Below, in pieces: positions 6,040 through 63,685 of a stretch of DNA of 64,000 bases; the first letter of the stretch is position 1, and each line of letters opens with the position of its first letter. Source of the stretch: an uncultured virus (IMG/VR IMGVR_UViG_3300009183_004450). Lineage: Duplodnaviria; Heunggongvirae; Uroviricota; Caudoviricetes. The translations under genes and the position numbers were made by a program. A model generated the notes under the pieces. It did not search any database and was not told where the DNA came from. It saw only the letters and a program-made list of their open reading frames with translations. Where the stretch lies: the IMG/VR virus record IMGVR_UViG_3300009183_004450. The stretch is one strand, 5' to 3'.

Positions 6040-6848
6040 TATAATTTCCAATGATTACTAATTAACTCAACATAAAAATTAGAAAGATACTCTTGGCTTT
6101 GCGGCTCTCCGTGATAGCCTGGATCTTTTTTTACATCTTTTAAAGGATGTATATTAGTTGCATAACCAATGGTTTCTTCATTTTTTATACGTAGATAAAT
6201 GTCTGGTATCACTGAAGATATTTTTTGTCTAATAGTGTCACATCTCCATAATAAATTTGGATCAACACTAAATGGAATTCCTAAATGATATAATTCAAAT
6301 AATCCTTGAGTTGTTACCCATTCGTCCAATTGCTTTTTCCAATTTGAATCATAAAGATGATTTACAAAATATTTTAAAGCAGTCTGAGCGTCACGATCTA
6401 TTAATCCGCTTCTATAGGGATGAGTATAATTCTCTGCCAAACTGAAAATAGTTTCACAGATCATTCTATAAGAATTATTACCATAGTTCACATTGTCAAT
6501 ACCTGCTGCAGGATCATATCCATTTTTAAACTCTTGATTTAATAAATGTTCTTGTAGATCGTTGCCCCAACTTCTGCTGTGATCTGTTTTCCAATCATAC
6601 GGGGCTGCTGTTGCGGGAATTTCCATGCGGTCATGAGAAGTTGGGCCAACAATGACAAAATCTGCACGATTGTTTATAGCTTCTTGTATTTGTATTCTGA
6701 TGCCACCATTACTGCATCCTTGTCTAGCCAAATGAACCAAGTTCCAACCAAGTTTCTTTGCTGTCAGTTCAGCATAACTGGTTCCTTTAAATTCCTCTAT
6801 AGAACTAGGAGCACTAAAACTGTCGCCGCATACATACAAGGTTTTCAT
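6039..6848 (-). CDS. SGNH/GDSL-like hydrolase or acyltransferase
   Basis: CGDSF, GCSN and C-terminal DPGYH. Confidence 0.6.
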   Translation of the reverse strand: MKTLYVCGDSFSAPSSIEEFKGTSYAELTAKKLGWNLVHLARQGCSNGGIRIQIQEAINNRADFVIVGPTSHDRMEIPATAAPYDWKTDHSRSWGNDLQEHLLNQEFKNGYDPAAGIDNVNYGNNSYRMICETIFSLAENYTHPYRSGLIDRDAQTALKYFVNHLYDSNWKKQLDEWVTTQGLFELYHLGIPFSVDPNLLWRCDTIRQKISSVIPDIYLRIKNEETIGYATNIHPLKDVKKDPGYHGEPQSQEYLSNFYVELISNHWKL

Positions 6849-8329
6849 TTCCATTCGGCTTTCTCTACTGAATGTGGATAGTTTGCTTCTTTATAAAATT
6901 GCTTGCGTTTGGTTAGGTGGCGTTTTGCGAACTTGCAGTTACTGGTTATGTCCCAGATTTGAACATGATCCTTGTCCGCAGCTTTACGGATGCCTCGACC
7001 TATACTTTGAATGACTCGAACAAAGCTCTTACCAGGCTCAATAAGAACAAGATTAAAAATGCGGGGAATATTAATACCAACAGCGGCCACGCCATAGGTA
7101 GCGATGATAATTTTGTTTGTTGCCTCTGCCACTTCGTCATAATGTTCCTTTCGCTCCCCGGCTTTTGTAGCACCTGATACAAATACCACGTCAGGTTTAT
7201 CTGACAACAAACTCCACAGATTGCTTAATTCGATCTGTAACATCTTGCCTGTTTCTATACGATCAACCAAGATCAAGGTATTACCACCGTCCTTGATTGT
7301 GCCAATTAATCGGGCCAGATACGCTATTCGCTCGGGGTTTGTTGTCAAGTATTTAAGCTCGCTTTGATAATCTTTATAATCTACGTGATCGACTAGTTGT
7401 ACTATATTGACATGACACATAGCAAGATGCCCGGCTTCTTGTAGTTCTCTTGCACTTAATTGTCCCACTACATTTCCCAGCATACAGAAAATGCTCATGT
7501 ATTCAAACTGCTCTTTGGGAATAGTTCCGGTTAGTCCCCAACGAATAGGTATCTGTGCGAACGGGCCAGACAGCAATGCTTTCAATGCATCTGCTTTGGC
7601 CATGTGTACTTCATCTACAATAACACATACTACACCTTCCAAGAACTCTCCAATGGTGATATCAGCTTCATCATTCTTGGTATTCTTTAGTAAGTTGTTC
7701 AAACTTTGCCATGTACATATTGTATGGGTACGATTGTAATCTTTACGATCACCAAAGTATACACCAACGTCCAATTGCATGTTGACAAAATCGTCTTCGG
7801 TTTGTGTTACCAAACTCTTGTTGGGCACAATCACAATACTACGACCGTACTTGCTAACTCCGTCAGCCAGTGCCGCTGTGATAACAGTCTTACCTGCACC
7901 TGTTGCCACTTCCTGCACACATTGGGGATTGGCAAAGAATCTATTGATAATTTCAGGCTGATAATCACGTAACTCCATGGACTGCCCGGCCTTGGGATGA
8001 CCCTTGGGCCACTTGATATGACTGTAGCTTTGTTCGTCAACTTCTGCAAATTCAAATGTGGTGCGATATTCTCTAGTGTCCACTACTTCAATGTCGTAAC
8101 CTTGCTCATCTAGGTAAGCAAGTATGTCTGGAAGGAGATTGATATAAGTGCTACCACCCAATTGGAAGAATGCTACTTTGCCATCCCACCGACCAAGACG
8201 AACGCTGGGTTGATATCTAGCACCTGGTATTTCATACTTGTATCGTTTAACCAAAGCTGTTCTTGTACCAAGATCCAATCCTTCAATCTTGACATTAACT
8301 TCGTCTCGAATTATTAACTTTGCTTGCAT
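6845..8329 (-). CDS. uvsW: UvsW-like SF2 DNA helicase
   Basis: LRDYQ, ATGAGKT, DEVH, GLTGT, QSIGRGIR. Confidence 0.92.
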   Translation of the reverse strand: MQAKLIIRDEVNVKIEGLDLGTRTALVKRYKYEIPGARYQPSVRLGRWDGKVAFFQLGGSTYINLLPDILAYLDEQGYDIEVVDTREYRTTFEFAEVDEQSYSHIKWPKGHPKAGQSMELRDYQPEIINRFFANPQCVQEVATGAGKTVITAALADGVSKYGRSIVIVPNKSLVTQTEDDFVNMQLDVGVYFGDRKDYNRTHTICTWQSLNNLLKNTKNDEADITIGEFLEGVVCVIVDEVHMAKADALKALLSGPFAQIPIRWGLTGTIPKEQFEYMSIFCMLGNVVGQLSARELQEAGHLAMCHVNIVQLVDHVDYKDYQSELKYLTTNPERIAYLARLIGTIKDGGNTLILVDRIETGKMLQIELSNLWSLLSDKPDVVFVSGATKAGERKEHYDEVAEATNKIIIATYGVAAVGINIPRIFNLVLIEPGKSFVRVIQSIGRGIRKAADKDHVQIWDITSNCKFAKRHLTKRKQFYKEANYPHSVEKAEWK

Positions 8330-9489
8330 TAGGCTCTTCGTTGCATAGTGTTATTATTATACACTTCGGTTGCAAAGTATACAACCTTTTTGGCACGTTG
8401 CAACAGTATTGATTTATCTCCACCATGCATCATGCCTTGCCCACTAATCAATAAAGGGATAGGTTGTGTCCAATTGGCACTAAATTTATTGAAGTATATA
8501 ACTTTTTTACCTTCGATAATTGGTTCTTTTTTAACATCCTTTGCATGATAAATCTCATCGCTTTTAAAATTTAAGTTAATAAAACCATCGAGCAATCGAC
8601 CACTTAAATCGGGTTCATAAACATAGATAGGATATCTATTGGTTATATCAGCATAGTCTATAATATCTTTTGCTATGTCATCATGCACTGTTGGACTAAA
8701 CTTAGTTTCCTGTGCTGTCATTAAATTATATATACGCGGCGAGTATTTAGAAACTACATGCTCTTCAATTTCTTTGCCAACTGTATACCCAAGTATCGGA
8801 GCATGGTCAACCAATAGATCAATGCTACTAGAATCAAATCCGCACCAATTATTAATGTATTCAATTAAACTGTTGGCAGCATTGGTAATGCTTAACCCGT
8901 TTTTATTGGTTAATTCAATTTTATATTCTGTTTCCTCACAATTGTTAATAATCTGAACAAGCTCAGCAAACTCAGTGCTGATCTCAAATTGATGATTCTG
9001 CGCAAATCCGTTGACTGCGATTGTGTTGGTCTCAGTTAGCCCCACTTTCCAAGTCTTTGTATCGCCGTCAAATGCCCAACGGCCTTCACTGAGCTTTGTT
9101 AGTTCCCTAATGTCATCAATTAATTTAACGTCGTATGGAAAATGCAATACTATGAGATCATCTTCGATTCGAAGAATACGCCGGCGATCAATAGTTCGTA
9201 TACCCAAGCGAAACTGCGGATTCTCAATTGGAGTTACGTCAATGCTTCGTGAAGCCAATTGTTTGCGATATTTTAGCACAATCTTACATGCTAATTCGGC
9301 TTGCCGATCCGTTAACGGTTTTCCACTTGAAGCAGCATTGCTCATACTATTTAAAATTTGAACATCGTACCGAGCCAAATTAACTATAGGCGGAGTGTTA
9401 TCAAATAAACCGTATAATTTTCCAGTTGCTGGATCACGATCGCCATTGATAATCTCAATATAATCTTCAACGTAAGAAAAGGTTTTCAT
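8329..9489 (-). CDS. Hypothetical protein upstream of uvsW
   Basis: 386-aa ORF, TAATG-coupled to uvsW. Confidence 0.65.
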   Translation of the reverse strand: MKTFSYVEDYIEIINGDRDPATGKLYGLFDNTPPIVNLARYDVQILNSMSNAASSGKPLTDRQAELACKIVLKYRKQLASRSIDVTPIENPQFRLGIRTIDRRRILRIEDDLIVLHFPYDVKLIDDIRELTKLSEGRWAFDGDTKTWKVGLTETNTIAVNGFAQNHQFEISTEFAELVQIINNCEETEYKIELTNKNGLSITNAANSLIEYINNWCGFDSSSIDLLVDHAPILGYTVGKEIEEHVVSKYSPRIYNLMTAQETKFSPTVHDDIAKDIIDYADITNRYPIYVYEPDLSGRLLDGFINLNFKSDEIYHAKDVKKEPIIEGKKVIYFNKFSANWTQPIPLLISGQGMMHGGDKSILLQRAKKVVYFATEVYNNNTMQRRA

Positions 9490-9496
9490 AGTAGTA

Positions 9497-9525
9497 ATTA
9501 TACACTAAACAAAATTATAAGTCAA
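9497..9525 (-). promoter_or_regulatory. Sigma70-type promoter, apparently leaderless
   Basis: TTGACT-17-TATAAT, ATG begins after a 7-nt gap. Confidence 0.8.
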
Positions 9526-9552
9526 AAAAATGCCCACCTTGCGATGGGCATT
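9524..9552 (-). terminator. Intrinsic terminator after the AAA ATPase gene
   Basis: UGCCCAUC-GCAA-GGUGGGCA followed by a U run. Confidence 0.85.
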
Positions 9553-9557
9553 GAAGA

Positions 9558-9590
9558 ACCGAAGTAAAAGGAGCTAACAAAAACTTCGGT
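9558..9590 (-). ncRNA. Candidate regulatory hairpin with an anti-Shine-Dalgarno loop
   Basis: 8-bp stem ACCGAAGU/ACUUCGGU around the loop UUUUGUUAGCUCCUUUU. Confidence 0.5.
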
Positions 9591-9601
9591 GTAGTACTCA
9601 G

Positions 9602-10630
9602 TTATGCTGCTTTCATGCAAGTTGTTTGAGCCAGTGCCTGCCATTTGGTTGGAAAGCTCTTGTACAATTGCCCAATCTTGATTGCCATACGCAGGCTCAT
9701 TTCACGCAACTTATTTTTGTTGACGTTCATGAACTCAATGATCTCGTCTTGACCAACGTCACTGATGTCCATGTCTGCAAACAATTCGCCGCTACGTGCA
9801 ATCTGCTTGATACGCAACACCTTGTCACGCATGGTGTCTAGTGTTAGATCCAAGTAGTGGCAGCGTGACTGCAGTGCATCCAAGTGATCACGCAACTTTT
9901 GCGATTTCATTTTGTCAAACTTAAGATTAGTAATAAAAATTACTGAACCGTGAAAGTTAAATGAATCTGGGATGCCTTCGCGGCGCAGAGTACTAGACTC
10001 CGACAACCACGAAATCTTACGCTTCTTGCCTGAGTCTAAGGCGCCTTTCAGCAAGTTCAAACTTACATCGTCGAGCAAAATGCTGTCGCAATCGTCAAAC
10101 ACAACCACACAGTTTGGATCCGAATACTTGTACAGTGTTTGATACAAGCCAATTGGTGTTGCACTACCTTTGACGACTTCTGCACGTAATCTCTTACCTG
10201 CAATTTGGTCAAACAACGTGGCCTTCTCAACTTCTTGCTCAACGCCGTAGCTCTTGCCCACACCAGGAGGACCACTCACAATCATCGCACGGATGTCGCC
10301 GCTGACAGCCGCCTTGGTCATCTCAGTAAGAATTTCAAAACGTTCAGCAATTTCAGCCATACGCTCGTCATCTGTTTGTGTAGCAGCAACTTCTGCTTCA
10401 ATACACTCTGCTACTGCTACGTCACCTTCAGTGACAAATTCGTAATCAGAAACACCATTGACTTTGACACGAATGTCTTCCGGGAAGCCCTGAAATTGTC
10501 CGCCATTCTTAACAGTCACGTACCCACCTTTAACACCTGATTTAAATTGTTCTACCAATTGAAACACCTTACCAGAAACGTCAGTAGTGCGATATGCACC
10601 TGACTTAATACGAACAAATGCGTTTGACAT
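9602..10630 (-). CDS. AAA+ ATPase (early gene)
   Basis: Walker A GPPGVGKS, Walker B VVVFDD, IFITN, ALQSR. Confidence 0.85.
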   Translation of the reverse strand: MSNAFVRIKSGAYRTTDVSGKVFQLVEQFKSGVKGGYVTVKNGGQFQGFPEDIRVKVNGVSDYEFVTEGDVAVAECIEAEVAATQTDDERMAEIAERFEILTEMTKAAVSGDIRAMIVSGPPGVGKSYGVEQEVEKATLFDQIAGKRLRAEVVKGSATPIGLYQTLYKYSDPNCVVVFDDCDSILLDDVSLNLLKGALDSGKKRKISWLSESSTLRREGIPDSFNFHGSVIFITNLKFDKMKSQKLRDHLDALQSRCHYLDLTLDTMRDKVLRIKQIARSGELFADMDISDVGQDEIIEFMNVNKNKLREMSLRMAIKIGQLYKSFPTKWQALAQTTCMKAA

Positions 10631-10660
10631 TACAGGCTCCTTATTAGTTAATATACAGCT

Positions 10661-10689
10661 ATTATAGCAAACGGGCGATTTTTTGTCAA
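10661..10689 (-). promoter_or_regulatory. Early sigma70 promoter
   Basis: TTGACA-17-TATAAT with extended TG; SD TAAGGAG downstream. Confidence 0.88.
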
Positions 10690-11030
10690 GCCGCTTTTAG
10701 TTGCTTAACCAACAGCTTAGGCGTTGCGCCTTTGGTAACCATCATCCAGCCTGTTGTGTCTACTAAATCAACCTCTACAATCTCAAACTTAATGCCAAGA
10801 CTTTTCATTACTTTGTTAACAGATTGTAAAGCAGCCACAATGCCCGCTTCACAGGCTTGGTATTCGTCTTGGGTTGCGTCATTAAATCCTGCATTGTCCA
10901 AAATGCCTTCTACTGCTGATTGAAAATCATAAGCCCCATCCAGTATTAACAACTTGTTAATTTTTTTAATTTCTGCATCTGGCAGCTCTTGGCATACAGC
11001 TTCTAAATCAAAAGTTTTTAGTGTCTTCAT
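10686..11030 (-). CDS. Hypothetical early protein
   Basis: Own promoter and strong SD. Confidence 0.7.
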   Translation of the reverse strand: MKTLKTFDLEAVCQELPDAEIKKINKLLILDGAYDFQSAVEGILDNAGFNDATQDEYQACEAGIVAALQSVNKVMKSLGIKFEIVEVDLVDTTGWMMVTKGATPKLLVKQLKAA

Positions 11031-11062
11031 TTGTTACGCTCCTTATTAGTTACTATACACAT

Positions 11063-11091
11063 ATTATAGCAAAACGGGTATTTTTAGTCTA
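11063..11091 (-). promoter_or_regulatory. Early sigma70 promoter
   Basis: TAGACT-17-TATAAT with extended TG. Confidence 0.82.
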
Positions 11092-11100
11092 CCGTTTTTT

Positions 11101-11373
11101 TTATATTTCTAAAGTTGCTACTTTTGCAAGTGCTTTATCAAAATTTGTTACTATGCTGAAGTTAGCATAATTGTAACGTTTGCAAAGAGTTAACAAATAT
11201 GCATGTAGTTGCTCTAAAGTTGTTACATTGTTAACATCAGAAACGTATAATGCTTTTGTGCTATTAAATGTAGGGTAGTTATGCACAGCAATGCGTAACA
11301 CGTACTCATTTTTTATTGCTTTTGCGTTAACACGTACAAAAAGGGTACTATTTGCAGTAGTTACATATTGCAT
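11101..11373 (-). CDS. Hypothetical early protein
   Basis: Own promoter and SD CAGGAG. Confidence 0.7.
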   Translation of the reverse strand: MQYVTTANSTLFVRVNAKAIKNEYVLRIAVHNYPTFNSTKALYVSDVNNVTTLEQLHAYLLTLCKRYNYANFSIVTNFDKALAKVATLEI

Positions 11374-11403
11374 AATGTGCTCCTGTTTTGTTAGTAACAG
11401 TGC

Positions 11404-11432
11404 ATTATAGCAAATTAGGACTTTTAGGTCAA
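11404..11432 (-). promoter_or_regulatory. Early sigma70 promoter
   Basis: TTGACC-17-TATAAT with extended TG. Confidence 0.85.
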
Positions 11433-11441
11433 TGTTGTTTT

Positions 11442-11663
11442 TTAGCGACGGTACCGTCTTACGTGATGAAAGATACGCGGAGTTGTAGTGTTTTTAGTTC
11501 CCGGATCTCCACCTACATTTAAACGAAGATCAGGGCTAATATTCTTGGTAAGAGCGTTGACATAGAGTGCCATTCCGCCATTGGTGGTGCGTATTAAACA
11601 TAGTCCCTCATTGTTGGTAACCATGTACATGGATATTCCGTTATCGTCGTCGACATAGAGCAT
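11442..11663 (-). CDS. Hypothetical protein
   Basis: 73 aa; TAAATA box 4 nt before the ATG; overlaps the upstream gene by 70 nt. Confidence 0.5.
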   Translation of the reverse strand: MLYVDDDNGISMYMVTNNEGLCLIRTTNGGMALYVNALTKNISPDLRLNVGGDPGTKNTTTPRIFHHVRRYRR

Positions 11664-12067
11664 ACCCTATTTATTGCTTCATCCAATTGGACCAGGGGTA
11701 CACCGTTCTCCTGATAGCCTTCTGTGACCATATCCAAGTATCCTTGCCCGGGTGCTTCAAGTCCGTCTTGATCTACCATTTGATAAGTCATTGCAGACAC
11801 TAGGTATTTGCCTGTATTGACCATGACATGAGATCTGGTATAATAATAAGGGTAACCTTCTAGGCTGTCTAACGCTCGACGATGAGTTTTATCAATATCC
11901 CACAGTACGCCGTAAACACGGGCACCAGGTAATTTTTCTATATCAGCATGAGTTCTAAACTCAAATTGATAGTTGTCGGCCCAGGCCATGCCCAAGCAAA
12001 CTGCACCCGGGCAACGACGTGCCATTTGGTCCAGGTTTGTGTTCATTCCGTATGCAAAGTATTTCAT
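11594..12067 (-). CDS. Gamma-glutamylcyclotransferase (AIG2-like)
   Basis: YFAYGMN, VYGVLW, LDSLEG motifs. Confidence 0.85.
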   Translation of the reverse strand: MKYFAYGMNTNLDQMARRCPGAVCLGMAWADNYQFEFRTHADIEKLPGARVYGVLWDIDKTHRRALDSLEGYPYYYTRSHVMVNTGKYLVSAMTYQMVDQDGLEAPGQGYLDMVTEGYQENGVPLVQLDEAINRVCSMSTTITEYPCTWLPTMRDYV

Positions 12068-12097
12068 TAAATGAATTAACAATATTAAAGAGTAGCA

Positions 12098-12126
12098 ATT
12101 GTAGCAAATATCCCATTTACTGTCAA
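12098..12126 (-). promoter_or_regulatory. Early sigma70 promoter
   Basis: TTGACA-17-TACAAT with extended TG. Confidence 0.8.
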
Positions 12127-12560
12127 CTGTACACCCATCCTAAATTTTCCAATTGATGAATCCATAAAAATATGGGAGTTTCAAATTCTAATTCCCAACG
12201 TCCGTTCCAACCCATGAATGTAGCACTTGGTTGATATTCAGGTAAAGACTCCGGCTGCTGACTGGCCCATGGCTCCGGGTATACGGGATAATATTTTCCA
12301 GCCCATTTAAATCGATCCAATGTCATTCCTTCAAAACCAACTGAGACAATTTCTACGGCCATGTCTGGTGTTTCGTCGGTTTTGCTATTAAAATGTAAAA
12401 TGAATTTTTGAAGTCCAGGATTAAAATTACAATCAAATACAAGTTCTGTGATTTCAGTCAACGTTAGAGTGCTATGCTGATTTCCTACACTGTACGTCAC
12501 AATTGGATCAACTGCCCCGTGAGGTTTCAAAATTATCTTAAACTGGGTATTCATATCCAA
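12123..12560 (-). CDS. Hypothetical protein
   Basis: 145-aa ORF coupled to the radical SAM gene. Confidence 0.6.
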   Translation of the reverse strand: MDMNTQFKIILKPHGAVDPIVTYSVGNQHSTLTLTEITELVFDCNFNPGLQKFILHFNSKTDETPDMAVEIVSVGFEGMTLDRFKWAGKYYPVYPEPWASQQPESLPEYQPSATFMGWNGRWELEFETPIFLWIHQLENLGWVYS

Positions 12561-13845
12561 TGTCTACTAGAAAATCTTTGTATTCTGGATAATAGTCAAA
12601 TGCATTGAGTTTGTATTCTTTGTCCCATCTCATTAGCCACAATGACAATTCTCGTCTAAGATCGTCAATATTGCTTGGCTCTGAAGCATCAAGCATAGCC
12701 ATCACTGATCTGCACTCGCGAAGTAATTGTTGTGCTAAATTACCAACATTACGCCCTGTTGTAATTGTTTTTATGTTTGGCTGTTGTTGCTCCAAAAACA
12801 ATTCTAATTTAATATATTTTTCTTTGATCTTTTTGCGTATTGATAAAGGTAACACCAATATTTGTAAATATGCCGGATCTACTAGAGGAATGCCTTGTAT
12901 GGGCAACTGATTGTCCCAGGCCCACATGATATATTCATCATAATTGTTAATGTTTAACAACTGCGGAACAGATCTTATCACTAAGTGAAATTGATCAGAT
13001 TGTTGTTCTTTTAACCAATATATATTTTTTAAAACATCTTTTATATTTGACCCTTGTCTTATATAATCATTGTTACGGTTAACACTTTCAATGCTGATTT
13101 CAATATCAAATGATTTAAATTTTTTTAATTTTTGTATTATGTCAGGATTAATCAAAGTGCCGTTGGATACAAAACTAATGGACATTGACGTTCGGTCAGC
13201 TTCTATCAAAAAATCTAACAATTCAACAAATCGTTTGTTTAGTAAAGGCTCGCCGCCCATGAAATGTAATCTATTCAATTCAGGAACGTTTAATATACTG
13301 TTGGTAAAATTATCCCACGCAGCAGTTTCTCTCGTCCAATTTTGATTTGCTGATTGATCAATCAGTTTCCATTTTACATACATGTTGGATATGACACTAC
13401 TGGCCCTAGGAAGGCACATTTTACAGGCCAAATTACATTCATTACCCAAATCCACATGCCAGTCAATTGGCTGTTTTGATGTGACTCCATCAGACGATTC
13501 AAATTCTTTGTAATAAGGACTTTGTTGATAACTGCGGTCAAATGCTTGTTCTGTGAATATAACAGATTTAAAATTTTCCTTTATACGACGACTTTCATAA
13601 CCGTAATTTTCTTCACGGTAACATCCTCGACAAGCTGGAATTGGATCGTTGGAAGTGATACTCTTTCTGAATTTTTTCATTGGTTCAGAATTGTACCAGG
13701 TATCTACTGTTATATTTTTTAAATTATATTTTGCAGAATCACGATGCGGCGGTTCTTTTTCGCTGCAACAGACTCCGTAACTACCGTCCCAATAGATATG
13801 TGTGTTTGTCCAAGGAACGTTACAAAATATCTTTTTATTAGGCAT
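12538..13845 (-). CDS. Radical SAM protein with N-terminal SPASM/twitch-like domain
   Basis: CNLACKMC, GGEP, N-terminal C..PW/CC/CRGC. Confidence 0.9.
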   Translation of the reverse strand: MPNKKIFCNVPWTNTHIYWDGSYGVCCSEKEPPHRDSAKYNLKNITVDTWYNSEPMKKFRKSITSNDPIPACRGCYREENYGYESRRIKENFKSVIFTEQAFDRSYQQSPYYKEFESSDGVTSKQPIDWHVDLGNECNLACKMCLPRASSVISNMYVKWKLIDQSANQNWTRETAAWDNFTNSILNVPELNRLHFMGGEPLLNKRFVELLDFLIEADRTSMSISFVSNGTLINPDIIQKLKKFKSFDIEISIESVNRNNDYIRQGSNIKDVLKNIYWLKEQQSDQFHLVIRSVPQLLNINNYDEYIMWAWDNQLPIQGIPLVDPAYLQILVLPLSIRKKIKEKYIKLELFLEQQQPNIKTITTGRNVGNLAQQLLRECRSVMAMLDASEPSNIDDLRRELSLWLMRWDKEYKLNAFDYYPEYKDFLVDIGYEYPV

Positions 13846-37752: not shown

Positions 37753-38739
37753 TTATTTTGCGCGATTGCGAATCATTGCTAGGATGTCTTCTGCCTTTTG
37801 ACTTGAAGGTTTAGCAGCAACAGGTGCAGTAGCCACTGGTACGTCATCTTCGTCTGCATCAAACGGAGCAGATTCTACAGGTGCAGGAGCTGCCGCTGGT
37901 GCTGCCTTGGCAGTTGGTGCACCTCCGGTATTATCATCACCACCTTTAGCAGTGAAGCCGCTAGGCTTGAAATACTGACCCCAGCGATCCGGATCGTATG
38001 CTTGACCATCAACTGATGCTTCAAACATTTCTTTGAGCACTTTGAGTTCAACATCACCTGGACGCTTGGGCAGGAAGTCTGCCAAGTTGTACAAACCGTG
38101 TGCATCAATTGCTGCTTGTTCCGATGCTGTCAGCGCAGTCTCTTTGCGACTCCACTTGCTAGTGCTGTAGTCTGCATAACCACCTTTGCTAGTCTTTGTT
38201 ACAGTAAAATCCAAACCAGCGGTGTAATCAGTCGGCATACTTTCTAGTTCTGGATCCATTAGTGCAGACTTGATTAAATTAAAAATCTGCGGGCTTATCA
38301 CAAACCGGCGTATTGGGTTCTCTGGTGTTTTGTCATCCGCGAGTGGATTGTCTTTTACAAAGCCTTGGAACAAATAACTTTTCTTCTTCCAATACTTACG
38401 GCCCATTTCTTCTAGACTTGGATCTTTAAACCATGTACGTACTTCTGCTAGGATTGGGCAAGCCTCTCCGTACATCTCTACGCATGGTACTTGTACTACT
38501 ACGGGCTTACTATCCGCTTGACCTTTAACACCCGCAAAAGGTAGTTTGATCATTAAACGCTCAACCCAAAAGAAAGAGTTGCTTGTGTTTGCGTCTGGTA
38601 AGAAACGGATTTTTGCACTTGAGCCTTCTGGAATGTTCCAGTGTGCATAGATGGCGTTATCGCCTTGTGATTGACCGCCTTGTGAACGGGTCTCTTGCGC
38701 TTGTAGCTTTGCGCGAATTTCTGCTAATGATGTTGCCAT
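37753..38739 (-). CDS. gp32: Single-stranded DNA-binding protein (gp32-like)
   Basis: IRFLP, Cys pair, YADYSTSKW, acidic/Ala tail. Confidence 0.88.
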   Translation of the reverse strand: MATSLAEIRAKLQAQETRSQGGQSQGDNAIYAHWNIPEGSSAKIRFLPDANTSNSFFWVERLMIKLPFAGVKGQADSKPVVVQVPCVEMYGEACPILAEVRTWFKDPSLEEMGRKYWKKKSYLFQGFVKDNPLADDKTPENPIRRFVISPQIFNLIKSALMDPELESMPTDYTAGLDFTVTKTSKGGYADYSTSKWSRKETALTASEQAAIDAHGLYNLADFLPKRPGDVELKVLKEMFEASVDGQAYDPDRWGQYFKPSGFTAKGGDDNTGGAPTAKAAPAAAPAPVESAPFDADEDDVPVATAPVAAKPSSQKAEDILAMIRNRAK

Positions 38740-55953: not shown

Positions 55954-55975
55954 AGTTAAAAATATTTATGCCAAA

Positions 55976-56003
55976 AAAATACCCGGTCAAAGCCGGGTAT
56001 TTT
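55976..56003 (-). terminator. Intrinsic terminator after the tail tube gene
   Basis: ATACCCGG/CCGGGTAT stem with a U run. Confidence 0.85.
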
Positions 56004-56020
56004 AAATAACAACTGTTTAA

Positions 56021-56644
56021 TTATGTTATACCAGTAATTAATGTGCCTAAAGTTCTTCCAACTGCTGTTCCAATACCAGTTCCAATTGGTGATTGGATAG
56101 CATTATCATACATGATTGTTAATGCAATAGTAGCTGGTTCATTGCTGCTATAATCCATTTCGCCGTAGTTCACAGTCTGTACTAGCGCACCATACAGTTC
56201 CCAAGTTTCTAGTACATTGGGTTGATTTGCACCGTTACCGCCATCGAGCATTTCGAACTTTAACAAGAATTTGTAATCAATACCAGAACTTGCACTTGCT
56301 TGCTCAGCAAAATCAAATTGTTTCTGAATTTGTTCGCCAACCAATTTACTAATATTACCACCTGCGTCATCACGCAATGTAACGTTAACCGCTTCCCAAG
56401 ATGGCTTGCCAACTAGGTTTACTTTACTGTTATAAACATCAATGGTAAATGGGTTAAAATTTAAATTTGGGCGACTAATTGATGCAACTTGCTTAGTTAG
56501 CTCAACTTTGTCTGTACTTACACCGAAGTTTTCAAATATTGCACGGAAGCGATATTTTAGCTTAGGCATTAACAAGCCTTGTGTGCTAGCACTCTGGTTA
56601 GTTGCTAATGGTACTGTAAATTTGTTCAATGAGGCTATTGCCAT
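56021..56644 (-). CDS. gp19: Tail tube protein
   Basis: PKLKYRFR, GKPSWEAVNVTLRDD, WELYG, YDNA; follows the sheath gene. Confidence 0.85.
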   Translation of the reverse strand: MAIASLNKFTVPLATNQSASTQGLLMPKLKYRFRAIFENFGVSTDKVELTKQVASISRPNLNFNPFTIDVYNSKVNLVGKPSWEAVNVTLRDDAGGNISKLVGEQIQKQFDFAEQASASSGIDYKFLLKFEMLDGGNGANQPNVLETWELYGALVQTVNYGEMDYSSNEPATIALTIMYDNAIQSPIGTGIGTAVGRTLGTLITGIT

Positions 56645-62436: not shown

Positions 62437-63627
62437 TTAGTTGATTCGGAGCAGGATCATATCAGCGTTAATACGCCCGTTCCCGATGGTTTCTGTTGCT
62501 TTAATCTCCTCCAAGAACTTGCGTAGCTGTATTTTAGTGGCTTTTGCAAATTCTTTGAGTTTTTCGTCGGGCTTGCGTAATGTTTTGCCCACACTCTTTG
62601 CTAGGTCAAAGCCTGTTAAACTAGTGCCTTTGATGCCTAACGGTCCAGTTAAACTGTCAGCAATGTATTTGTAGAGCTTGCGTGTCTTGGTGTTATAGCA
62701 CCAGACTTCCTGTGCGCCAATAATGTCCACAGGATTAATGCTTACTAACTTCAGCGTCTTTTCTTCACGCATGTATTTGAGCTTGCCAACAAGTTTTTCT
62801 TTGTTAGGAGCACGTTTTACACGTAATTTTTTAGTTGCTTTCTTGACTCCGCGATACTGTTCTAGTGCATCCAGTACGGCATCCAAAAACGCATAGTGAC
62901 GTTTATAGTCTGCCGCTTTGAAATGTTTATAAGATTCAACATAGTCTTCAAACAGTTTGCCTTGTGCTGCGCCTAGTTCTGCTTTACGAGCACTAAACAG
63001 TTCTACAAATTTGTTAATCTGACTTTGCGGTACTGTATTAGCAGTCAAGTAATCAAATGCCTTTGGATCAACGGTTCCGCCCGATACAACTTCGTCATAC
63101 AAGCCTTCAAAGTGTGCCAAGTGCTCACTTGTTTTTTCGTTAAGTCGATCCTGGATAGTGGGTGCTCGTACTGTGGCTTTTTCAGCTGCTGGCATTGGTG
63201 CGCCAGTTGAACTTTCTACTACATCTCCGTCGTCTTGTAGCAATGCTATTTCAATACGCTCTCGAAGATAACCAAGTTCTTTTTCACGTAGCGGCATGCC
63301 TTGACGATTTGCCATAAGCAAGCCGTATGCTGTCATTGGGACTGCGCGATCTGGGCTGCGGATAAATGCACTAACTTGCTGTTTTGTATATTTGTTATCC
63401 TGCATCCATTTAACCAGATGCTTTTTTAGATCTTTTTGGCTGTAGTAATAATTGTAATACGAAAAACTTTTACGCAAGAAGTGATCAAATTCGTCCTGGC
63501 TCATTGCTGTTGCACGTTCTGTATCCCAGACTGGTTCACTCCCGGTGTACTTCTCATCAGAGAACATGGGATCTCGAGATTTTTTGGCTACTTTTTTGGG
63601 TGCCTTTACACTTTGCTGTAATGCCAT
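62437..63627 (-). CDS. Hypothetical early protein (T4-like phage type)
   Basis: 396 aa; YNTKTRKL, KTLRKP; SD AAGGAG. Confidence 0.65.
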   Translation of the reverse strand: MALQQSVKAPKKVAKKSRDPMFSDEKYTGSEPVWDTERATAMSQDEFDHFLRKSFSYYNYYYSQKDLKKHLVKWMQDNKYTKQQVSAFIRSPDRAVPMTAYGLLMANRQGMPLREKELGYLRERIEIALLQDDGDVVESSTGAPMPAAEKATVRAPTIQDRLNEKTSEHLAHFEGLYDEVVSGGTVDPKAFDYLTANTVPQSQINKFVELFSARKAELGAAQGKLFEDYVESYKHFKAADYKRHYAFLDAVLDALEQYRGVKKATKKLRVKRAPNKEKLVGKLKYMREEKTLKLVSINPVDIIGAQEVWCYNTKTRKLYKYIADSLTGPLGIKGTSLTGFDLAKSVGKTLRKPDEKLKEFAKATKIQLRKFLEEIKATETIGNGRINADMILLRIN

Positions 63628-63656
63628 TTTTCGCTCCTTGTTACTTAGAATATAAC

Positions 63657-63685
63657 ATTATACTACTCTTCGGGTTTTGTGTCAA
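63657..63685 (-). promoter_or_regulatory. Early sigma70 promoter
   Basis: TTGACA-17-TATAAT. Confidence 0.88.

Follow-up and report, generated by a model that had tools for sequence, protein, structure and literature searches.

A conserved 3'-UTR hairpin of uncultured jumbo phages with a loop complementary to early ribosome-binding sites, a candidate riboregulator

The ATPase locus and hairpin 1

The window, that is, the whole stretch of 64,000 nucleotides that was analysed, is part of an uncultured jumbo phage, with related IMG/VR contigs of up to 250-375 kb. No DNA match to positions 9300-9900 was found among 50,697 phage records, and the closest cultured homologues of the ATPase encoded at this locus were those of the PA5oct-type Pseudomonas jumbo phages (48% identity), with the T4-like phages at ~34%. 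Positions 9500-12100 are occupied by a run of short genes, and the genes at 9489, 10630, 11030 and 11373 are each provided with a strong sigma70-type promoter of their own; a fifth sigma70-type promoter (12126-12098) is located upstream of an AIG2-like gene. The features of the locus, and those of one more gene with the same type of Shine-Dalgarno (SD) sequence, are as follows:

8329..9489, minus strand: gene X, 386 aa, the ATG placed 7 nt past a -10 hexamer and devoid of an SD
9497..9525, minus strand: sigma70-type promoter TTGACT-17-TATAAT, 11/12 consensus matches
9524..9552, minus strand: intrinsic terminator, 10-bp G+C-rich stem 9552-9529, GCAA loop, U7 tract 9524-9530
9558..9590, minus strand: hairpin 1, stem 9583-9590/9558-9565, 17-nt loop 9566-9582, core AGCUCCU 9569-9575
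9602..10630, minus strand: AAA-ATPase gene (phrog_1250, AAA fold), with hairpin 1 in its 3' UTR
10636..10642, minus strand: SD of the ATPase gene, AAGGAGC, a candidate target with 7 bp to the loop, -11.1 kcal/mol
10661..10689, minus strand: promoter of the ATPase transcript, consensus sigma70, 12/12 matches, extended -10
11031..11044, minus strand: SD-to-start region AAGGAGC-G-UAACAAA of the gene 10686-11030, the best predicted target in the window, -17.0 kcal/mol
11063..11091, minus strand: sigma70-type promoter of the 11030 gene
11379..11384, minus strand: SD AGGAGC of the gene 11101-11373, -10.8 kcal/mol
11404..11432, minus strand: sigma70-type promoter of the 11373 gene
63633..63639, minus strand: SD AAGGAGC of the gene 62437-63627, -11.6 kcal/mol
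63657-63685, minus strand: sigma70-type promoter TTGACA-17-TATAAT of the gene 62437-63627

The stop codon of the ATPase gene, UAA (9602-9604), is followed after 11 nt by hairpin 1, the 8-bp stem of which is formed in the minus-strand RNA by ACCGAAGU (9590-9583) and ACUUCGGU (9565-9558) and closes the 17-nt loop UUUUGUUAGCUCCUUUU (9582-9566); after another 7 nt the intrinsic terminator begins. The first-pass annotation of this DNA had placed an 8-bp stem with its loop between the ATPase stop and the terminator on the minus strand, and its coordinates and sequences were correct. The terminator has the usual composition of an intrinsic one, with 10 pairs (5 of them G-C), a loop of 4 and T7, and no alternative pairing between it and hairpin 1 was found in the local fold. 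The fold of the 96-nt region with hairpin 1 has a z-score of -3.5, equalled by 1 of 200 shuffles. The -35 hexamer of the 9497..9525 promoter overlaps the U-tract of the terminator, and a like arrangement is visible in the relatives.

Gene X, situated behind this promoter, has no SD and its ATG lies 7 nt past the -10 hexamer; it is therefore predicted to be leaderless, and in nearly all of its 52 homologues the -10 hexamer stands 6-8 nt before the ATG. The structural model of its product (pLDDT 89) is weakly SF2-helicase-like by fold search (XPB/UvsW matches, TM ~0.27); no Pfam, PDB-sequence or cultured-phage match was obtained, and the Atlas search returned viral hypothetical clusters only. 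Gene X precedes a UvsW-like helicase gene.

The SD form AGGAGC is restricted in the 64 kb to four genes (10630, 11030, 11373 and 63627), all of them behind consensus sigma70 promoters, and the earlier reading that the SDs at 10630, 11373 and 63627 match the loop seed was confirmed in the sequence. The SSB (gp32-like) gene at 38739 has the SD AAGGAGA and the tail tube gene at 56644 has CAGGAGA, in agreement with the GGAGA attributed to both before, while the majority of the other gene starts in the window have a weak SD or none, as had been noted for many late genes.

Hairpin 1 as a conserved RNA motif

The first scan of IMG/VR yielded 424 relatives of the ATPase, the best 80 of these 424 loci were taken, and the arrangement 3' of the ATPase gene was found to be common to most of these best 80. 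In the alignment A1, comprising 45 distinct hairpin-plus-terminator sequences, the loop core AGCUCCU is invariant and its flanks are nearly so (UUUG.U on the 5' side and UU on the 3' side), and 7 of 7 stem pairs covary with changes on both sides, as in ACCGAAGU, GCCGGAAU, GGUUGUGG, GACUAUGG, CCAGGAGU and others. The covariation score was 0.641 against 0.245 +/- 0.017 for shuffled alignments (0 of 500 as high), and slid controls did not exceed 0.173. The terminator, covarying and conserved likewise, has 92% of its cells paired across the 45 sequences. Covariation and loop conservation among relatives had been named by the first-pass annotation as a check on its reading, and both were found.

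The strand on which the motif folds is marked by its wobble pairs. Among the 315 cells of the hairpin 1 stem there are 34 G.U against 2 A.C, and the fold therefore belongs to the transcribed strand, the minus strand of the window. The annotation had offered a second possibility, in which the plus strand presents a GGA loop as a decoy for CsrA/RsmA, and the complementary strand would indeed display AAAAGGAGCUAACAAAA in the loop. However, read on the plus strand the 34 G.U pairs are A.C mismatches, and the pairing falls from 94.0% to 83.8% of cells, the terminator is functional on the minus strand only, a single GGA motif is available, and neither a promoter nor a gene exists on the plus strand at the locus; the decoy has a next to negligible probability and was rejected. 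The RNAs that sequester CsrA/RsmA, of the RsmY/Z and CsrB type, are recognised by several GGA loops on the transcribed strand, and the element, with one GGA on the plus strand, does not belong to them.

The covariance model R1 found one copy in the window (66.8 bits, the next match being of 20.8) and matched with at least 41.9 bits in 57 of the best 80 of the 424 loci, never twice per locus. Two complete genomes contained one copy each, among them the 355-kb genome G004 with 70.6 bits (next match 26.1), and in the whole PA5oct genome no R1 match above 25.9 bits was present. No family of Rfam 15 reached its gathering threshold; the sole overlapping match was that of isrD, with 17 bits against the gathering value of 37 (E = 6.9), and it overlaps the terminator part of the element. 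On this comparative evidence, a large family of uncultured jumbo phages shares hairpin 1 as a conserved RNA motif, with one copy in each genome.

The neighbourhood of the hairpin is in part constant and in part exchanged. The constant module consists of the hairpin, the terminator, the overlapping promoter and then a leaderless gene, with a gap between the hairpin and the terminator of 5-12 nt throughout, at the border of the early genes and the next gene block. The gene upstream is the ATPase gene, a small membrane ORF or others up to 4.4 kb from the ATPase gene; the gene downstream is mostly X, with an unrelated protein in the L077 clade. Since the neighbours vary while the hairpin and terminator are constant, the unit consists of these two elements, the form that a 3'-end RNA should have. 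A general 3' stabiliser, or a second terminator hairpin whose sequence serves no specific role, would suit this position, as tandem 3'-end hairpins are common and the isrD-like match (17 bits, E = 6.9) is a terminator-type resemblance only. However, for such a role the stem would suffice, whereas here the stem sequence is free and the loop, of 15-26 nt in the family, keeps an invariant core; this explanation is very improbable.

A scan of IMG/VR with the pattern TTTGNTAGCTCCTTT gave, among the matches listed, 81 in 80 loci, and 11 of these 81 pass the hairpin-plus-terminator filter, at least 2 of the 11 looking spurious. The remaining matches among those listed mostly have CAT upstream, being the reverse complement of AAAGGAGCTANCAAA-ATG sites in unrelated phages, which shows that, as a sequence, the loop reads as the antisense of a common strong ribosome-binding site (RBS). 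Loops bearing CUCCU would in general pair to some degree with strong SDs. The motif GGCAATGTCAATAAG of the relatives is present in the window only with 3 mismatches, which is the chance level.

Complementarity and co-variation of the loop with early ribosome-binding sites

The loop pairs with the RBS of the 11030 gene (AAGGAGC-G-UAACAAA, 11044-11030) over 14 bp with one bulged G at -17.0 kcal/mol, and this RBS is the top duplex site among the ~64000 minus-strand positions of the window; the 14-nt pairing with one bulge proposed earlier for this site is thus real and the best on its strand. The three other AGGAGC sites give -10.8 to -11.6 kcal/mol with the window loop. When the loop was shuffled, 8 of 1000 shuffles attained -17.0 on at least one of 68 gene starts, and 1 of 1000 attained the observed mean over the four AGGAGC sites, a set chosen post hoc; the comparison with shuffled loops, also suggested in the annotation, accordingly found the pairing far better than random.

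The same preference is seen across the hairpin-bearing loci, where 55 of the 72 promoter-led genes with an SD of the GGAG type have the form GGAGC, as opposed to 19 of the 57 remaining genes with such an SD. The median energy of pairing with the locus's own loop was -12.8 for promoter-led starts (n=76) and -4.5 for the others (n=236; Mann-Whitney p = 2e-25), the latter being the first ATGs of ORFs and possibly including wrong starts. The gain of the loop over the 16S anti-SD decamer was -5.15 for the promoter-led starts against -2.65 for the others (p = 4e-8). The C following GGAG is without a match in the CCUCC anti-SD of 16S rRNA, and it pairs with a G of the loop core. As judged by complementarity, the loop is antisense to AAGGAGC(U), the SD form typical of the genes with sigma70-type promoters, which are presumed to be early.

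The second scan, seeded with a divergent ATPase, added new clades and gave 355 relatives. In the relatives, changes in the loop are accompanied by changes in the ATPase RBS, as in the pairs UUAGCUCC/GGAGCUAA, GUCAGCUCC/GGAGCUGA, AUUGGCUCC/GGAGCCAAU and GGUUGGCUCC/GGAGCCAACC. The individual cases are the following:

L047: loop GUUAGCUCC, ATPase RBS GGAGCUAAC
L039 and L292: loop CUAGCUCC, ATPase RBS GGAGCUAG
L254: loop GUCAGCUCCUG, ATPase RBS CAGGAGCUGA
L281: loop AUUGGCUCCU, ATPase RBS AGGAGCCAAU
L072: loop GUUCGGCUCC, ATPase RBS GGAGCC(U)GAAC
L022: loop UUAAGCUCCUUU, ATPase RBS AAAGGAGCUU
GAUA-loop clade: loop UUGAUAGCUCC, ATPase RBS GGAGCUGUUA, G.U pairs included
L077 clade (7 distinct sequences): loop GGUUGGCUCC, ATPase RBS GGAGCCAACC, -21.8 to -22.3 kcal/mol

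From 48 distinct loop/ATPase-RBS pairs, 46 were analysed, L045 and L061 being left out as their RBS has no GGAGC. At the base adjoining the core, the loop:RBS combinations were A:U in 26 pairs, A:C in 10, G:C in 9 and A:G in 1, so that the loop G stands opposite an RBS C in 9 of 9 cases. The contiguous pairing past the core averaged 2.04 in the 46 own pairs against 1.32 +/- 0.14 in permuted ones (0 of 10000 permutations), and in the energy swap test with the first 39 pairs 29 of 5000 permutations were as low as observed; many of the rows are kin, so these permutation p-values overstate the independence, and ~7 independent lineages have extended and differing matches. The extension past the core is absent in 11 of the 46 pairs and amounts to one base in 14 (25 of 46 with at most one). 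In the window's own clade, the ATPase RBS has GGAGCC, which against the loop A makes an A.C mismatch and leaves 7 bp only.

The ATPase RBS was the best site in 10 of 10 listed loci, at -16.8 to -22.3 kcal/mol. The 11030 gene as target, chosen in the first-pass annotation, therefore stands in one part: in the window's clade its RBS is a better site than that of the ATPase gene (-17.0 against -11.1 kcal/mol), whereas the family-wide best-conserved partner is the ATPase RBS. The change of the extension is not confined to the ATPase gene. In L077, L079 and L285, each with more than one promoter-led SD, 10 of 10 such SDs are GGAGCCA, matching the clade loop UGGCUCC, and this shift shared by the putative early class in the L077 clade points to a class-wide target. 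The broader claim that the loop is antisense to the RBSs of the early genes is borne out, as promoter-led starts are by far the better predicted sites, the loop is conserved and the RBS co-varies with it.

In the window's clade, a promoter-leader cassette, AGUAAYUAAUAAGGAGCG-NNNN-CAAAUG, precedes unrelated ORFs. Its NNNN is UAAC, UGAC or CAAC with the GUUA loop and AAUC or AGUC with the GAUA loop, the change opposite loop nucleotide 6 being an exchange of A:U for U:A, and the variant UACC is mismatched to the GUUA and GAUA loops alike. A tblastn search with the 11030 protein gave few homologues.

The distribution of losses was followed on a quick tree. Both the hairpin and the GGAGC SDs are missing in the L064/65/66/71/73 clade and in the L035/L048 clade with its relatives L027 and L037, in the latter two of which the gene X region was not seen. 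In L028 and L043, there is no hairpin upstream of X, yet GGAGC is kept. A strict coupling of hairpin presence to GGAGC SDs is thus only partly true, being broken by L028 and L043.

An invariant 7-nt loop sequence on a freely covarying stem, always placed 5-12 nt ahead of a terminator at the border of the early and the next gene block, is also typical of hairpins recognised by proteins, and hairpin 1 might be a nut/boxB-like site at which a factor for antitermination, termination or processing binds to act on the neighbouring terminator, with its anti-SD likeness incidental. However, such a site leaves unexplained why loop positions beyond the core vary in concert with the ATPase and early-gene RBSs in ~7 lineages, and why the loop A->G is met every time (9 of 9) by the SD U->C. 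Alternative pairing between hairpin 1 and the terminator is absent, and A1 shows the conserved hairpin loop but no further conserved linear element of the boxA type. The co-variation of loop and RBS argues for RNA pairing over a nut-like site, which we regard as quite unlikely.

The 10-14 nt repeats around the ATPase gene, consisting of the RBS and the loop, co-vary, and they might therefore be read as an inverted repeat at the DNA level that flanks the ATPase segment and serves inversion or recombination. However, all hairpins, including the 57 matches of at least 41.9 bits, are on the ATPase strand, so that the inverted form was not encountered; the ten proteins encoded around the hairpin and the one at 62437-63627 included no recombinase; and one of the repeats sits in the loop of a stem that uses G.U pairs, which is an RNA feature. 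A DNA repeat of this kind is extremely improbable. These alternatives, the protein-binding site, the stabiliser, the DNA repeat and the CsrA decoy, all leave the co-variation or the strand asymmetry unexplained.

A predicted antisense brake on early translation

The interpretation of the first-pass annotation is supported as far as sequence analysis goes. We consider it fairly likely that hairpin 1 is a 3'-UTR riboregulator directed against ribosome-binding sites, which as the tail of early transcripts would pair through its loop with early RBSs and repress them; the phage thus probably has in it a built-in brake, made of RNA, on the synthesis of its early proteins. Together with the terminator, hairpin 1 would form the 3' end of early transcripts, of the ATPase mRNA here and of that of another upstream gene in relatives. 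The exposed single-stranded loop, with the core AGCUCCU, would pair with the SD region of the mRNAs transcribed from sigma70-type (presumed early) promoters, which carry a putative private SD extension, AAGGAGC(U/C)(A), superfluous for the 16S anti-SD. With the SD and spacer covered by the pairing, 30S subunits would be kept off, the repression of translation being what we infer from this. The regulator, being the tail of early mRNAs and thus made together with them, would therefore act on early protein synthesis as a negative feedback or as a timer. The main target family-wide would be the ATPase mRNA, in the window the same molecule, and the 11030 site would be the strongest in the window.

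The contact might be made within one mRNA, between its 5' and 3' parts, or in trans after processing to a ~70-nt RNA, in which Hfq or RNase E might take part; the U-rich spacer and the U7-U10 tail are, as we assume, compatible with an Hfq site. A separate sRNA of 70-80 nt and the targeting of host mRNAs, both envisaged in the first-pass annotation, may likewise be supposed. Twenty sequencing runs contained parts of 9300-11500, and one of these was an RNA run (share 0.10), the contigs of which, without ends, strand or level, cover pieces of early genes, with one relative's contig on 9556-9590, and speak neither in favour of an sRNA nor against one. In a global fold of the 1131-nt ATPase mRNA, the loop-RBS contact had a summed probability of 0.05 and the MFE fold dissolved hairpin 1; this result is taken as uninformative because kilobase folds of translated mRNA are unreliable.

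A contact in cis only, by which the 3' loop shields the leader and SD of its own mRNA from nucleases or stabilises the transcript with no sRNA acting in trans, agrees with the ATPase RBS being the top-ranking partner with the strongest covariation, carried by the same transcript as the loop in the window and in L293, and with the hairpin being produced 1:1 with the ATPase mRNA. However, in L039, L044, L047, L062, L068 and L077 a distance of 0.8-4.4 kb, with several genes, separates the hairpin from the ATPase gene upstream of it, the clade-specific SD extension is common to several separately promoted early genes, and, with each gene under a promoter of its own, the best site of the window, 11030, belongs to a different transcript; coverage of the SD should, moreover, block the ribosomes anyway. 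The cis-only contact is unlikely, and the class-wide label together with the separate promoters of the targets favours at least some action in trans by the proposed riboregulator.

In its position and seed, hairpin 1 resembles the autoregulatory 3' UTR-derived sRNAs OppZ and CarZ of Vibrio cholerae, described in the available part of Hoyos et al. 2020 (PMC7398697). As in that text, the regulator is derived from the 3' UTR just ahead of the intrinsic terminator of the operon, the pairing (here predicted) involves a gene of the same transcription unit, at its translation initiation region, and the outcome (here proposed) is a post-transcriptional negative feedback (PMC7398697). Hairpin 1 lies between the stop codon and the intrinsic terminator, and its invariant core, as the seed, is complementary to RBSs in its own transcription unit. 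In contrast to OppZ and CarZ, with which it has no sequence or structural homology and which are bacterial, hairpin 1 belongs to a lytic-type jumbo phage, and its seed is in a loop of 15-26 nt and antisense to the SD itself, by which it could therefore address a whole early gene class.

The c4 antisense RNA of the phages P1 and P7, according to the part of the review PMC12197685 available, has loops complementary to the RBS region of a target in the same operon and blocks its translation. Hairpin 1 is like it in being a phage RNA with a loop complementary to a ribosome-binding region, the block being in this case predicted. However, c4 acts in temperate phages on a single antirepressor gene (ant), upstream of which it is situated (PMC12197685), whereas hairpin 1 is at the 3' end by the terminator, its candidate targets are the SDs of several early genes, and there is no sequence similarity between the two. 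A comparable phage element was found neither in the literature listings nor in the available part of the phage-sRNA review PMC12197685. The features by which hairpin 1 would differ from the known cases are its virulent-type jumbo phage, a seed that is the SD antisense, and the co-evolution of this seed with a private early SD extension.

In Firmicutes, the RNAs RsaE/RoxS use C/U-rich loop seeds to pair with the purine-rich SDs of several mRNAs; they are host-encoded, have their own promoters and contain several C-rich motifs. Hairpin 1 shares with them a pyrimidine-rich loop motif set against the purine-rich SD of several mRNAs and differs in having a single loop, in being phage-encoded and in a 3' UTR, and in a seed co-evolving with a phage-specific SD extension. 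The RegB endoribonuclease of T4 shuts off early mRNAs by cutting GGAG Shine-Dalgarno sequences. The outcome proposed for hairpin 1 is alike, namely a class-specific inactivation of early mRNAs via an SD signature; however, RegB is a protein nuclease and hairpin 1 a proposed antisense RNA loop.

A wider reading, which we put forward tentatively as a possibility with somewhat less than an even chance, is that of private translation addressing, in which the early SD extension (AAGGAGC-U/C-A...) would be a label for the phage riboregulator and one hairpin per genome would shut off the early class once enough early transcript has accumulated. The label and its reader may co-evolve clade by clade, UAGCUCC with GGAGCUA and UGGCUCC with GGAGCCA. 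In large virulent phages, the timed shut-off of the early genes is mostly put down to proteins (RegB, RegA, sigma remodelling), and a conserved anti-SD loop co-evolving with early SDs suggests an RNA-only mechanism of shut-off. If the addressing holds, hairpin 1 would do with RNA what RegB does in T4, and no earlier case would be on record of a virulent phage encoding an RNA that shuts off the translation of a whole gene class. The RNA-only mechanism would account for the conserved C after GGAG in the early SDs of the family, unneeded by the 16S rRNA. The element would also extend to phages the 3' UTR autoregulation exemplified by OppZ and CarZ of Vibrio and would offer a compact orthogonal SD/anti-SD pair. 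Hairpin 1 is a new and well-supported RNA motif, suited to Rfam-type curation, and the second scan gave further hairpin variants beyond those of the 57 among the best 80 of the 424 loci.

Start of gene X and its helicase neighbour

The gene lying downstream of the anti-SD hairpin and its terminator (gene X, 386 aa) begins, in almost every one of the 52 homologues, 6-8 nt past the -10 hexamer and, because of this short distance, is predicted to be a conserved leaderless gene, with the exception of the related locus L068, where its start is SD-led. The -35 hexamer of the same promoter, UUUUUUUGAC, shares bases with the U-tract of the terminator (window 9489-9530, minus strand), and likewise in the relatives. 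The structural model of gene X (pLDDT 89) has a weak XPB/UvsW-like fold, and the gene adjoins that of a UvsW-type helicase, with a stop/start overlap at 8329 (window 6845-9489, minus strand); the two may form a working pair.

Promoter-leader cassettes and other sites in the window

Nearly identical copies of a promoter-leader cassette, AGTAAYTAATAAGGAGCG....CAAATG, were seen ahead of unrelated ORFs in different phages.

11031-11060, minus strand: promoter-leader cassette
10631-10660, minus strand: promoter-leader cassette
L004, L010, L030, L040, L058 and L060 (loci retrieved through ATPase homology): further copies

The cassette appears to be mobile, or to recombine, as an expression unit separate from the genes it precedes. 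Situated among the early genes are one that is AIG2/gamma-glutamyl cyclotransferase-like and one of the radical SAM/SPASM type (window 11594-13845, minus strand). The second-best match in the window to the covariance model of the hairpin and terminator (55973-56023, minus strand; 20.8 bits, E = 0.06) comes immediately after the tail tube gene and is probably no more than a terminator.

Variation past the ATPase gene in related loci

In several lineages, a hydrophobic ORF of about 30 codons (e.g. MVWFFAILLLLAGQPLLAF...) is inserted directly after the ATPase stop, with which its start overlaps as TAATG. In one clade an additional small hairpin (e.g. GCGGAUACUAUUCCGU) between the stop codon and the anti-SD hairpin gives a 3' end of three hairpins.

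Hydrophobic ORF, between ATPase and hairpin: L005, L024, L026, L030, L034, L045; also L035, L048
Additional hairpin: L011, L012, L014-L016, L022, L023, L029, L031, L033, L036, L038, L041

In the relatives with other genes inserted after the ATPase, the conserved motif GGCAATGTCAATAAG or its variants, 20-60 nt past the stop (L007, L035, L039, L043, L044, L048, L062), precedes SD-led genes and is a possible phage-specific promoter of the middle or late class; the window has it only with 3 mismatches, which is the chance level. At 4035-4110 of L069/L070, ACAGUU-AGCUCCAG-AACUGU is able to form the anti-SD hairpin, the 3' arm of which could alternatively pair in a second hairpin, AGAACUGU/ACAGUUCU, and these two mutually exclusive predicted folds constitute a possible switch.
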